The notes beneath the pieces are model-generated. The model had not been told where the DNA came from. It saw nothing but the letters and a program-made list of their open reading frames with translations, and ran no database searches. A DNA stretch of 64,000 nucleotides from Calditrichia bacterium. Its GTDB lineage: Bacteria; Calditrichota; Calditrichia; RBG-13-44-9; J075. Location: assembly GCA_965227145.1 (NCBI GenBank), contig OZ245730.1, positions 2,243,661 through 2,307,660 on the forward strand. Direction: 5' to 3'. Below, one piece after another: positions 33,650 to 36,823 of this stretch. Made by a program: the position numbers and the translations under genes. Positions within the stretch are counted from its first letter, which is position 1. Every line of letters starts with the position of its first letter.

Positions 33650-36600
33650 ATGAAAAACAACAGCATACATCTATTTTACATACTTGTTTTATCTTTTATC
33701 CTTTACCCTTTATCCGTGCTGCAAGCTCAGGACTATGAACCGAATCATCCCGAGCTGGTTTGGAAAACCATTGAAACAGAGCACTTTAGAGTGCACTACC
33801 ACCAGGGGACCGAGCGCACCGCAAATATCGTCGCAAAAATAGCGGAAGATGTTCATCCGGACATTGCCGGATTGTATCAGTACGAGCCGGATACCAAAGT
33901 TGATTTTATCATCAAAGATATCCAGGATTACGCCAACGGCGCCGCATATTTTTTTGATAACAAAATTGAAATCTGGGCGGAAAATCTCGATTACGTGCTG
34001 CGCGGCACCCACAACTGGCTGCGCGATGTGATCACCCACGAATACACCCACATTATTTCTCTCCAGAAAGCGCTCAAATTTACCCGTCGTGTTCCGGCTG
34101 GCTGGCTGCAGGTTTTCGGATACGAATCTGAACGCCGGGAGGATGTGGTTCGTGGATTCCCGGATGTGCTGATTTCTTACCCGATTTCCGGCATCACGAT
34201 TCCTGTCTGGTACGCGGAAGGCGTTTCGCAATTTCAGACACCCACGAAACGATTCGATTATCGCGATTCGCATCGCGAAATGCTCCTCCGCGATCGCGTG
34301 ATGACCGGTGAATTGCTCGATTTCAGCGAAATGGGACATTTCGGAAAAAACAGTATCGGCAACGAATCGAGCTATAATCAGGGGTTCGCTTTTGTGCGCT
34401 ATCTTGCTGAAAATTATGGTGATACGGTTGTCACTAAACTCGCAATAAACGCATCAAATCCGTTTGCAATTTCGTTCGATGGCGCAATGAAAAAAGCAAC
34501 CGGTGTCAGCGCCAAAGAGTTGCACAAACGCTGGCACGATGAGATGTTGAAAACATACACAGAGCGTCTTTCGACTGTGCAAGCAAACCTGCAAACCGGT
34601 GAACCGTTTGTTGAAGACGGCATCGGAAATATGCATCCGCAGGTATCGCCGGATGGTAAGTTTGTTGCGTATCTGGCAACCGGGGATGCGGACTATCTCT
34701 CACAAAATCAACTGGTTATCGAAAATTTGCAATCCGGTGAAAAACAGAAAATTGACGAGCGCATCACCGGTTCAATGAGTTGGTCGCCGGACGGCAACTA
34801 TTTAACCTACAGCAAAATTGTCCCAACGGATCAATTTCATCTTTATAATGATGTTTTCATTTACGATATCGCCAAAAAAGAGGTGCATCGCATCACACGA
34901 AACCTACGCGCCAGACACCCGGATTGGTCCAATAATGGCAATAATTTGACCTTTATTATTGAAAGCGACGGATTGCAAAATCTGTATGTTTTGGAATTGG
35001 GTGATTTGGAAAAGGCGCTGGCTCAGGAAAACTGGCTCTGGCGATATTACGATTTGAACTCACACGAAATGCTGGCTGATGGCAACCACGATTCTGAAAA
35101 AAATTGGCAGGAAAAATATCGAAAGAGCGGATTTAAAGGTGTTGCATTGCGGCAACTCACGCAATTTGTGGATGGACGGCAAATTTACCACCCGCGATGG
35201 GCACCCAGTGATGCAGAAATATATTTTGATACCTCCATTGAATTTGCCCGGGATATCGCGAAAATTCCCGCCGCCGGTGGCGAAATGTCTTATGTGTTGA
35301 ACGCAGAATATGATGAACGTTATCCCGATTTCAACCCGGTTACCGGTGAATTGATTTACGCCAGCGACGAAACCGGGATTTTCAATATTTACAGCACCAA
35401 TTTGCAAGCCGGTGCAAAAAAGGCGTGGACAAATGTTGTCGGCGGCGCTTTTATGCCCTCGTTAACGCCGGAAGGCGATTTGTTTTATTCCCAATATGTG
35501 AATCAGGGATACAAAATTTACCGCATAAATGATGCGCAACCGGTCGCGCCGGAAAAACTGCGCTACATCGAAAATTATGGCGAGACCATCCCGGAATTGA
35601 CGGTCAATCAACGGGTCGATAATCCGGCACCGGCTACGCCATACAAAAACAGTTTTTCGAGCGTCACATTTATGCCGCGACTGCTGGTCGATTACAAAAC
35701 CGTCAAACCCGGATTTTACATTTACACAAATGAGTTGCTGAACCGGCTGTCGTTTTTTGGCGGGGCGGATATCAATCTCGATAAAGACTACGATTTGTTC
35801 GGTATTTTTGAATACAACATGCACAAACCGACCGTATTTCTTGAGTTATTCAACCAGTCCGCAAATATTAAAGATAATGTGATACTACCGGAATTCCCGG
35901 GTGTCGAGCCGGAAATTGATATTCAGTTCAATTTGTTTCAGGGAAATTTTGGCTTTCGCGGGCATTTTTTGCCGGGCATTTTGGGAAAAATATTCGATAC
36001 ACGGCTGGAATATATTTTAAGCCTGTATCGTGCCCGAATCAAAGGATTTGCATTTAACGACCCGGTGAGCAATGCGCCGATTGAGTTTGCGCCGTTGCGA
36101 TATAGCTATTTGAAAGGTCAATCCGTAAGTTTATTGCTCAAACACGTGAGCGTCAAACGCGATCTGGATACGGAAATTAACCCGCGCGACGGGCGGTATT
36201 TCACGCTGCGGATTCAACGGGAGTGGAATAAATTTTTATCGGATTTCGCCACCGACCGTGCAGAAAATCTGGAAATATTTGACAAGTTCAATTTTAACCG
36301 CGTTGAAATGAATTGGGAAGAATATTTCAAAGTGCCGTTCACCGACCGGCACACACTCACTTTGCGGATGCAGGGCGGCTTTATCGATACCAAAGTGGAC
36401 AGCTTTTTTCACTTTTTCGGCGGTGGTTTGGTCGGGCTGAAAGGCTACCCGTTTTACAGCGTGGAAGGGCGGCGTGTGGCGATCGGCACGGCAACTTATC
36501 GATTCCCGCTGTTGCGGAATATCAACAAACAATTTCTGAACATGTATTTCGACAAATTGTATCTCGGTGGTTTTGCCCAATATGGCAACGCATGGTCAGA

Positions 36601-36823
36601 AAACACGCTCGATTTCGATGATTTTTTGAGTGACGTTGGCGTTCAGCTACGGCTCGATACATTTTCGTGGTATTTTTTCCCGACACGAATATTTTTTGAA
36701 GCAGCGTATCCGCTGAAAGTGCAGGTGAATAATGGCGTGTCATATCCCAAAGAATGGAAATATTACCTCGGTGTGTTGTTCGATTTCGATTTGCGGCTGG
36801 ACTCCCGTCGCTATCTGAAATGA
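33650..36823 (+). CDS. Outer-membrane multidomain protein: a zincin-like (HExxH) domain, a TolB/PD40-like beta-propeller and a C-terminal Omp85 (bacterial surface antigen D15)-type beta-barrel.
   Basis: A signal peptide, then HEYTHII followed by GYESER (candidate third ligand). PD40-like repeats include HPQVSPDGKFVAY, SWSPDGNYLTY, HPDWSNNGNNLTF and YPDFNPVTGELIYASD. The C-terminal ~400 aa carry Omp85 hallmarks: GGGLVGLKGYPF (RGF/Y-like L6 motif) and VGVQLRLDT...PTRIFFEAAYPL. Confidence 0.55.
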   Translation: MKNNSIHLFYILVLSFILYPLSVLQAQDYEPNHPELVWKTIETEHFRVHYHQGTERTANIVAKIAEDVHPDIAGLYQYEPDTKVDFIIKDIQDYANGAAYFFDNKIEIWAENLDYVLRGTHNWLRDVITHEYTHIISLQKALKFTRRVPAGWLQVFGYESERREDVVRGFPDVLISYPISGITIPVWYAEGVSQFQTPTKRFDYRDSHREMLLRDRVMTGELLDFSEMGHFGKNSIGNESSYNQGFAFVRYLAENYGDTVVTKLAINASNPFAISFDGAMKKATGVSAKELHKRWHDEMLKTYTERLSTVQANLQTGEPFVEDGIGNMHPQVSPDGKFVAYLATGDADYLSQNQLVIENLQSGEKQKIDERITGSMSWSPDGNYLTYSKIVPTDQFHLYNDVFIYDIAKKEVHRITRNLRARHPDWSNNGNNLTFIIESDGLQNLYVLELGDLEKALAQENWLWRYYDLNSHEMLADGNHDSEKNWQEKYRKSGFKGVALRQLTQFVDGRQIYHPRWAPSDAEIYFDTSIEFARDIAKIPAAGGEMSYVLNAEYDERYPDFNPVTGELIYASDETGIFNIYSTNLQAGAKKAWTNVVGGAFMPSLTPEGDLFYSQYVNQGYKIYRINDAQPVAPEKLRYIENYGETIPELTVNQRVDNPAPATPYKNSFSSVTFMPRLLVDYKTVKPGFYIYTNELLNRLSFFGGADINLDKDYDLFGIFEYNMHKPTVFLELFNQSANIKDNVILPEFPGVEPEIDIQFNLFQGNFGFRGHFLPGILGKIFDTRLEYILSLYRARIKGFAFNDPVSNAPIEFAPLRYSYLKGQSVSLLLKHVSVKRDLDTEINPRDGRYFTLRIQREWNKFLSDFATDRAENLEIFDKFNFNRVEMNWEEYFKVPFTDRHTLTLRMQGGFIDTKVDSFFHFFGGGLVGLKGYPFYSVEGRRVAIGTATYRFPLLRNINKQFLNMYFDKLYLGGFAQYGNAWSENTLDFDDFLSDVGVQLRLDTFSWYFFPTRIFFEAAYPLKVQVNNGVSYPKEWKYYLGVLFDFDLRLDSRRYLK

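Follow-up and report, generated by a model that had tools for sequence, protein, structure and literature searches.

The 64,000-nucleotide stretch of a Calditrichia bacterium genome analyzed here (GenBank assembly GCA_965227145.1, contig OZ245730.1, positions 2,243,661 to 2,307,660 of the forward strand; hereafter the window) carries a gene whose product combines an N-terminal zinc peptidase domain, a TolB-like β-propeller, and a C-terminal Omp85-type β-barrel (Table 1). This fusion gene stands third in a series of five that all run in one direction, with gaps of 78, 30, 37, and 47 nucleotides (nt) between them, the others encoding a PorV-like outer membrane protein, an M6-like inactivated metalloprotease dependent on a type IX secretion system (T9SS), here termed M6i, and two proteins of the DUF5683 type. 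An alternative TTG start lies at position 33632, six codons upstream of the ATG, and is where the mechanically called open reading frame (ORF) begins. Proteins at least 90% identical to the product, from several metagenome-assembled genomes (MAGs), were deposited as "hypothetical protein [Calditrichia bacterium]", and the database names of its homologues are similarly generic ("Tol biopolymer transport system component", "PD40 domain-containing protein", "BamA/TamA family outer membrane protein", or "hypothetical protein"). No NCBIfam model covers the peptidase-propeller-Omp85 family.

Table 1. Features of the fusion gene and of the associated genes in the window (positions are those of the window; aa, amino acid residues of the fusion protein unless a protein length is given)
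Feature	Position	Strand	Basis and remarks
PorU sortase, 1350 aa	13559-17611	-	NF033707, 770.6 bits (cutoff 420); Peptidase_C25, propeptide, C-terminal sorting domain
PorV-like outer membrane protein, first cluster gene	29438-30511	+	NF033709, 296.9 bits (cutoff 90); PorV equivalog, 238.5 bits (cutoff 250)
M6i, T9SS-dependent M6-like inactivated metalloprotease, 1009 aa	30590-33619	+	NF052323, 624 bits (cutoff 600); Por_Secre_tail, type A sorting domain
Peptidase-propeller-Omp85 fusion, whole ORF	33650-36823	+	1057 aa and TGA stop, from ATG 33650
Putative Sec-type signal peptide, aa 1-26	33650-33727	+	hydrophobic segment aa 4-27; ...LSVLQA/QD; no Cys
Gluzincin catalytic domain (clan MA, Peptidase_MA_2), aa 30-315	33737-34594	+	most conserved region of the protein
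HEYTH zinc-binding/catalytic motif (H130, E131, H134), aa 130-134	34037-34051	+	on helix 123-141 (model)
Conserved β-hairpin insertion, aa 150-180	34097-34189	+	between HExxH helix and glutamate helix; E159, R163, D165, G169, P171
W-Y-A-E-G motif, aa 187-191	34208-34222	+	on helix 186-195, next after the HExxH helix (model)
TolB-like PD40 β-propeller, aa 316-628	34595-35533	+	apparently six-bladed; insertion around aa 450-500
Linker, aa 629-672 (44 residues)	35534-35665	+	no POTRA; two 4-residue helices in model
Omp85-type β-barrel, 16 strands, aa 673-1044	35666-36781	+	DSSP of model; PF01103 matches of orthologues
GLKGY loop-L6 motif, aa 929-933	36434-36448	+	equivalent to (V)RG(F/Y)
DUF5683-family protein	36861-37781	+	Pfam, 27.6 bits (cutoff 26.7); starts 37 nt after the fusion gene
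Second, divergent DUF5683-like protein	37829-38605	+	BLASTP to first copy, E=2e-4; shared LPGAG

The N terminus of the fusion protein, MKNNSIHLFYILVLSFILYPLSVLQA/QD, has a single hydrophobic segment and no lipobox cysteine; read by eye, it resembles signal peptides of the Sec type and not those of lipoproteins. An AlphaFold2 model of the full-length protein reached a mean predicted local distance difference test score (pLDDT) of 88.4 and a predicted template modeling score (pTM) of 0.87, the latter indicating that the modeled domains are held in a fixed mutual arrangement. Together with the profile matches, this model places three modules on one polypeptide, namely a zincin, a propeller resembling TolB, and a barrel of the Omp85 type, as had been proposed in the original prediction from the letters of the sequence. 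Mean column conservation was highest in the peptidase domain (0.66, with 43 near-invariant positions), followed by the barrel (0.51) and the propeller (0.47), and lowest in the linker (0.36).

The Pfam family Peptidase_MA_2 was matched with 33.9 bits (cutoff 32.4) by the full-length protein and with 38.7 bits by the peptidase domain alone, and it was recovered with all 20 of the 20 family N termini searched, nine of which also touched the M9 collagenase family. Two sequence sets served to assess conservation, one of 115 close homologues and the other of 81 sequences from species-representative genomes with 35 to 55% identity. In both, H130, E131, and H134 of the HExxH motif were without change, and W187, A189, E190, G191, and Y242 were likewise invariant. 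Gluzincins have their third zinc ligand on the helix following the HExxH helix, where M1 enzymes carry the sequence WLNEGFA. E190, situated on the next helix within a W-x-A-E-G motif, is therefore the probable third zinc ligand of this family, judged from conservation and the model. We prefer it to the nearer E159, conserved in 80 of the 81 relatives, because the latter sits in a β-hairpin, and E159 was rejected as a ligand on these grounds. Of the initial proposal of an HExxH site with a downstream glutamate, the peptidase domain itself is borne out by the profile match and the residues kept in 81 of 81 sequences, and for the glutamate E190 is more likely than the nearer E159. The domain has the gluzincin hallmarks, an HExxH motif with a glutamate on the following helix and a thermolysin-like catalytic fold.

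Membership in the M1 aminopeptidase family was considered and rejected, as the GxMEN exopeptidase motif of these enzymes and a Peptidase_M1 Pfam match were both absent. The strand upstream of HExxH, which corresponds to the GxMEN strand of M1 enzymes, reads ANGAAYFFDN, lacks a glutamate, and takes the form (S/A)NG(G/A)AYF across the family. Moreover, H134 and E190 are 55 residues apart, owing to the inserted hairpin, compared with HExxH-x18-E in M1. The peptidase domain is M1-like in fold but not an M1 member, and the absence of GxMEN makes an endo- or oligopeptidase more likely than an aminopeptidase, as far as the sequence can tell. A HMMER profile of the N-terminal domain, run against the PDB sequences, retrieved nothing meaningful and hence no solved relative by sequence. 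In the hairpin, pLDDT was 31 to 35 when the domain was modeled in isolation and 65 to 87 in the full-length model; this change from disorder to confident prediction suggests that the hairpin packs against the propeller or the barrel. Within it, the stretch VVRGF (aa 166 to 170) recalls the L6 motif of Omp85 proteins and was considered as a possible mimic. This was rejected, since conservation of R168 and F170 falls below 80% across the wider family, and the likeness is probably due to chance.

The presumed TolB-like character of the middle region was upheld by sequence profile and structure searches alike. Residues 322 to 449 were matched by PD40 repeats and by the NCBIfam TolB propeller model, and TolB was the top sequence and structure match for the whole propeller. 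The TolB equivalog TIGR02800 covered the propeller blades only and, at 69.2 bits, stayed far below its cutoff of 343. The linker that follows has no β-α-α-β-β unit in the model, and POTRA (PF07244) gave no match in the window protein or in eight orthologues, in keeping with the claim that POTRA domains are missing here. As POTRA was found neither by Pfam nor in the modeled linker, the protein is not a BamA, TamA, or TpsB.

The Omp85/Bac_surface_Ag family PF01103 did not match the C-terminal region of the window protein even at E≤10. However, orthologues with 47 to 70% identity passed it with up to 43 bits (cutoff 24) over profile positions 20 to 323 of 325, and 14 of 20 family C-terminal domains matched it (best E=3e-12), so that Omp85 membership of the window protein would follow by transitive homology. 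The model strands are 8 to 21 residues long, the first (9 aa) and the last (8 aa) being short. The barrel proposed at the outset is thus backed by the 16-strand model and the orthologue matches, while the window sequence itself goes unmatched by PF01103. Two structure searches with the full-length model returned lists filled by propellers, in which no barrel match was seen. A family profile of the barrel hit TamA alone in the PDB, at a nonsignificant E of 1.1, and this alignment served to compare motifs: it places FAGGLVGLKGY onto FFAGGDQSVRGY of TamA and YGNAW, the strand-13 motif, onto QGNAF. Omp85 barrels are characterized by such L6 and strand-13 motifs, with (V)RG(F/Y) carried in the L6 loop. 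The corresponding G929-L-K931-G932-Y933 lies within a 29-residue loop (aa 913 to 941) between model strands 11 and 12. Among the 81 relatives, position 931 is occupied by K (51), R (26), or Q (4), and the other L6 positions are G (64), S (9), or A (8) and Y (79) or F (2). KGY had been singled out as a departure from the canonical RGF/Y; with RGY in a third of the family, we regard it as a conservative variant and reject it as a meaningful deviation. Overall, profiles and model point to an Omp85-type barrel of 16 strands at the C terminus and place HExxH in a gluzincin peptidase domain, so that neither of the two findings named beforehand as speaking against the prediction was made.

The architecture had seemed unrecognized when the sequence was first inspected, and here the initial impression does not stand. 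In the classification of Heinz and Lithgow (2014, Front Microbiol 5:370, PMC4104836), the Omp85/TpsB superfamily comprises ten subfamilies, types without POTRA domains being accepted among them, and one of the ten, termed WD40-like, has PD40 repeats before the barrel, with TolB as the top structural match, and was likened to a BamA-BamB fusion. For the WD40-like members, their Table S3 lists Phyre2 matches to the BamA/TamA barrels 4K3B/4C00 (100) and to TolB 2W8B/2IVZ (100), and a "best aminopeptidase hit" to 1Z5H, 4KXD, and others (about 99) (PMC4104836). The peptidase is not discussed in the main text of that paper, which gives neither gene context nor a function beyond the BamA-BamB likeness, and a later paper still counts the WD40-like subfamily among the uncharacterized Omp85 types (Hanson et al., 2024, PMC11116518). 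Judged by sequence, the product of the fusion gene is a typical member of this subfamily, in which PD40/TolB-like repeats likewise precede the barrel, POTRA is lacking, and an M1-type aminopeptidase-like region is present; we see no architectural difference, and the architecture was thus catalogued in 2014. Three accessions on the subfamily's list, H1XQ58, H1XP27, and H1XRH5, are presumably from Caldithrix abyssi (Calditrichota). A cluster look-up intended to connect the present family with the listed accessions gave nothing but "hypothetical protein" entries from MAGs. What the present analysis adds is the conservation of the catalytic site throughout the family, E190 as the probable third zinc ligand, and a conserved gene cluster associated with porU and porV.

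Homologues of the fusion protein are numerous. A word-indexed search returned 2,235 matches, and the best 120 of them had 43 to 98% identity, 114 being full length (1,020 to 1,111 aa). A scan of one genome per species yielded at least 325 carriers, the best 80 of which are labeled as Calditrichota, KSB1, Ignavibacteria/Melioribacter, Bacteroidota MAGs, Marinimicrobia, and Latescibacteria. With the peptidase domain as the sole query, 236 clusters (at 50% identity) were obtained at E≤1e-30. Among the best 150 of these, most representatives had 980 to 1,200 residues with the domain at the N terminus, and the shorter ones may be fragments; nine of the most distant were mostly peptidase plus PD40, with an Omp85 match detectable in two. 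Of 82 species loci, 80 retain the fusion, as do distant relatives with 32 to 36% identity. With full length preserved in thousands of homologues, a chance arrangement is not a concern. These counts agree with the expectation that orthologues keep the fusion, and the preservation of the full-length architecture among distant relatives implies from sequence that the fusion is old and stable.

The gene neighborhood was compared by tblastn across 82 related loci, with denominators restricted to loci with enough flanking sequence (at least 4.6 kb upstream for the porV-like/M6i count and 7 kb for the PorU count). The order porV-like gene, M6i gene, homologue of the fusion gene, all on the same strand, was present at 61 of 66 loci, and a DUF5683 gene directly followed the homologue on the same strand at 63 of 68. 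At 42 of 63 loci, a PorU gene lay directly upstream of the porV-like gene. A Melioribacteraceae locus (L069) has the whole row, with gaps of 4 to 31 nt, ahead of an unrelated GTPase gene: PorU scores 939 bits, PorV passes the equivalog cutoff with 265.9 bits, M6i reaches 961 bits, and the homologue and DUF5683 come next. Because this syntenic porV passes the equivalog cutoff and adjoins porU, the porV-like gene is, by sequence and position, the lineage's true porV. The two DUF5683-type proteins of the window share a segment S-x-(V/I)-LPGAG; the second gene is present at 26 of 82 loci, and its counterpart at locus L002 is called DUF5683. A promoter and terminator scan of positions 28800 to 39000 gave counts no higher than those in shuffled controls, and the operon inference therefore rests on the short gaps and the synteny. 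In the literature searched, we found no account of this operon or of what the fusion protein does, nor of Omp85, DUF5683, or M6i linked to T9SS operons; the sole mention of DUF5683 found was unrelated and concerned G protein-coupled receptors of nematodes.

M6i has no HxxxH motif anywhere in its sequence, so that the cluster pairs a defunct protease with a presumably active one, M6i ending 30 nt upstream of the fusion gene in the window and the two genes standing side by side in nearly every genome examined. As a further observation, the NCBIfam models NF052323, NF052324, and NF052325, numbered consecutively, represent the M6-like inactivated metalloprotease, PorU2, and PorV2, a numbering that suggests a second "type IX sorting" gene set defined by the curators; PorU and the PorV-like protein of the window matched the classical models far better than PorU2 and PorV2. 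In the T9SS, PorU, with its sorting domain retained, is seated on PorV, and PorZ on PorQ. The order of the cluster repeats this scheme, with the gene for a sorting-domain protein next to one for a barrel in porU and porV and again in M6i and the Omp85 barrel. Together with the nearly constant adjacency of the two genes, this could mean that the fusion protein is an outer membrane anchor for M6i, its barrel holding M6i at the surface and the periplasmic protease being secondary. We nevertheless judge such an anchoring role to be distinctly unlikely, since PorV/PorQ-type (FadL-like) barrels, and not Omp85 barrels, are known to anchor sorting-domain proteins and since the strict conservation of the catalytic residues would be left unexplained.

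The gene order also bears on a nutritional role, in which the protein would be a periplasmic oligopeptidase for nutrient peptides, its barrel a mere tether, and its place in the porV operon a historical accident. After TolB, the next-best matches of the propeller were those of tricorn, DPP-IV, and acylaminoacyl peptidase, in which the combination of propeller and peptidase makes classic oligopeptide processors, and Tricorn_N and Tricorn_2nd are among the precomputed Pfam families of the homologues. Yet the cluster contains no transporter or peptide uptake gene, and its order has been kept across Calditrichota, KSB1, Ignavibacteria-type bacteria, Marinimicrobia, and Latescibacteria at 35 to 55% identity, which is hard to account for without functional coupling. 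A purely nutritional role consequently appears improbable to us.

Based on the conserved operon with porV, M6i, and DUF5683, located in many lineages right after porU, we tentatively favor the view that the fusion protein is an outer-membrane-anchored, periplasm-facing zinc peptidase accessory to the type IX sorting/attachment module, a reading we hold to be quite plausible, if still short of probable. Following Sec export, the C-terminal 16-strand barrel would be inserted into the outer membrane, and the N-terminal 640 residues would remain in the periplasm, held beneath it. Zinc would be bound by H130, H134, and E190, with E131 as the catalytic base and Y242 as a likely helper, in what we take to be an intact gluzincin zinc endopeptidase, endo- rather than exo-activity being presumed. 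The propeller probably recruits substrates or gates access to the active site, as in tricorn and prolyl-oligopeptidase-type enzymes. By means of the barrel, the protease would be fixed to the outer membrane on its inner side, close to PorV and the translocon, where it might clear or process unfolded, stalled, or spent type IX polypeptides, be they cargo, sorting-domain fragments, or barrel components.

The periplasmic location assumed here follows what is established for this superfamily, in which all characterized N-terminal extensions are periplasmic, including the enzyme domain of PlpD, which was placed experimentally in the periplasm, docked near the barrel, overturning an earlier export model (PMC11116518). 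That earlier model for PlpD, the original type Vd model, invites the opposite topology, with the peptidase and propeller moved through or beside the barrel to digest external protein as a nutrient at the cell surface. The proposed partners PorU and M6i do act there, and Calditrichota and Ignavibacteria count as degraders of protein. Against surface display stand, apart from the overturned precedent, the size of a folded peptidase-propeller unit of 640 residues, which exceeds what an Omp85 lumen could hold, the availability in this lineage of the T9SS for protease export, and the pTM value, which points to fixed domain docking on one or the other face of the barrel. We consider surface display highly improbable.

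A role in general outer membrane protein biogenesis or quality control, independent of the T9SS, was also weighed. The barrel would then be a BamA/TamA-like insertase, the propeller a BamB-like scaffold, and the peptidase a BepA-like protease. This explanation, which we think unlikely, encounters three difficulties: a POTRA domain, which would receive substrates, is lacking; the operon shared with porV, M6i, and porU, tight and widely kept, suggests a specific set of partners; and constraint is highest on the peptidase and not on the barrel. It is the synteny that leads us to prefer the T9SS-linked role.

Several points weigh against the assignment to the type IX module. In the window, porU lies 12 kb away on the opposite strand, and it is also nonadjacent at other Calditrichota loci. 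Two homologues with 38 to 39% identity from unclassified bacterial MAGs (L024, 8001-11186, and L026, 8001-11192) have no porV, M6i, or DUF5683 neighbors; their context consists of housekeeping genes (TatC, thioredoxin, ArsA-like, and carbamoyltransferase genes) and offers no functional hint, the L024 gene following those for TatC, thioredoxin, and the ArsA-like protein. Some of the previously listed WD40-like accessions we take to be from Proteobacteria and Myxococcota, which lack a T9SS; if the wider subfamily occurs in T9SS-free phyla, its core activity may be independent of this system. Furthermore, the barrel fold is based on sequence profiles and on the strand count of the model and not on a structural match, and synteny tells of joint working but not of mechanism.

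A broader proposal, which we consider possible but rather doubtful, is that the fusion protein, M6i, and DUF5683 together form an unrecognized conserved component of type IX sorting/attachment in the non-Bacteroidia members of the Fibrobacteres-Chlorobi-Bacteroidetes (FCB) group, by which we mean Calditrichota, KSB1, Ignavibacteria, Marinimicrobia, and Latescibacteria. If this is true, type IX sorting in these bacteria would include a proteolytic step at the periplasmic face without counterpart in the Porphyromonas and Flavobacterium models, and the fusion protein would be the first of the Omp85 family tied to the T9SS. Omp85 proteins are the universal machines that insert or translocate proteins at bacterial and organellar outer membranes, and their subfamilies with enzymes in place of POTRA are the least understood, the patatin type (PlpD) alone having been studied. 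The family described here is ancient and has many members, and throughout it the catalytic site has stayed intact, which speaks for an important envelope function in several poorly studied phyla. The porU/porV link provides a testable hypothesis for its role and suggests that type IX parts exist outside Bacteroidia beyond the textbook system. Even if this link should amount to gene order only, the protein would still be a single-chain analogue of the arrangement of BepA with the β-barrel assembly machinery (BAM), useful for structures of outer membrane proteolysis.

Other genes in the window include an operon resembling that of the Na+-translocating NADH:quinone reductase (18255-25218, plus strand), complete with NqrA to NqrF domains and followed by an ApbE flavin transferase gene. 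On the minus strand, positions 41080-43338 encode a 752-aa fusion of 3-hydroxy-3-methylglutaryl coenzyme A (HMG-CoA) reductase with a GHMP-kinase domain, flanked by genes for a NUDIX protein (40483-41052) and a GHMP kinase (43413-44531); this set looks like a mevalonate pathway cluster. In a 1,375-aa protein (45846-49973, plus strand), the C-terminal domain is heparinase II/III-like; this protein matches DUF4962 weakly and has no NCBIfam match.

Among gluzincins, the M30 family (lugdulysin/hyicolysin), M1, the M9 collagenases, and thermolysin (M4) are the natural points of comparison, from all of which the present family differs in the 30-residue hairpin between the zinc-binding helices. TolB, the best match of the propeller, has an N-terminal α/β (TolA-binding) domain that is not part of the 1,057-aa protein, in which the propeller is instead fused between peptidase and barrel and carries an insertion of about 50 residues. 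PlpD, of type Vd, likewise has a hydrolytic enzyme N-terminal to a 16-strand Omp85 barrel; however, it is a homodimer with a patatin-like phospholipase and one POTRA, in contrast to the zinc peptidase and propeller without POTRA found here. Neither patatin nor POTRA gave a Pfam match in the window protein, which places it outside type Vd. In the BAM-BepA assembly of Escherichia coli, an HExxH metallopeptidase and a protein interaction module also come to lie under an Omp85 barrel, the HExxH site of BepA being placed beneath the BamA barrel, where the enzyme cuts misassembling envelope proteins (PMC13478230; PMC8423444). BepA is recruited to BamA, whereas the peptidase of the fusion protein is covalently joined to its own barrel, under which, by analogy, it would reside. 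With the T9SS attachment complex of PorU, PorV, PorZ, and PorQ, the fusion gene shares an operon with porV and, in many lineages, with porU; the described T9SS has neither an Omp85-family nor a gluzincin component, and the fusion protein has both.

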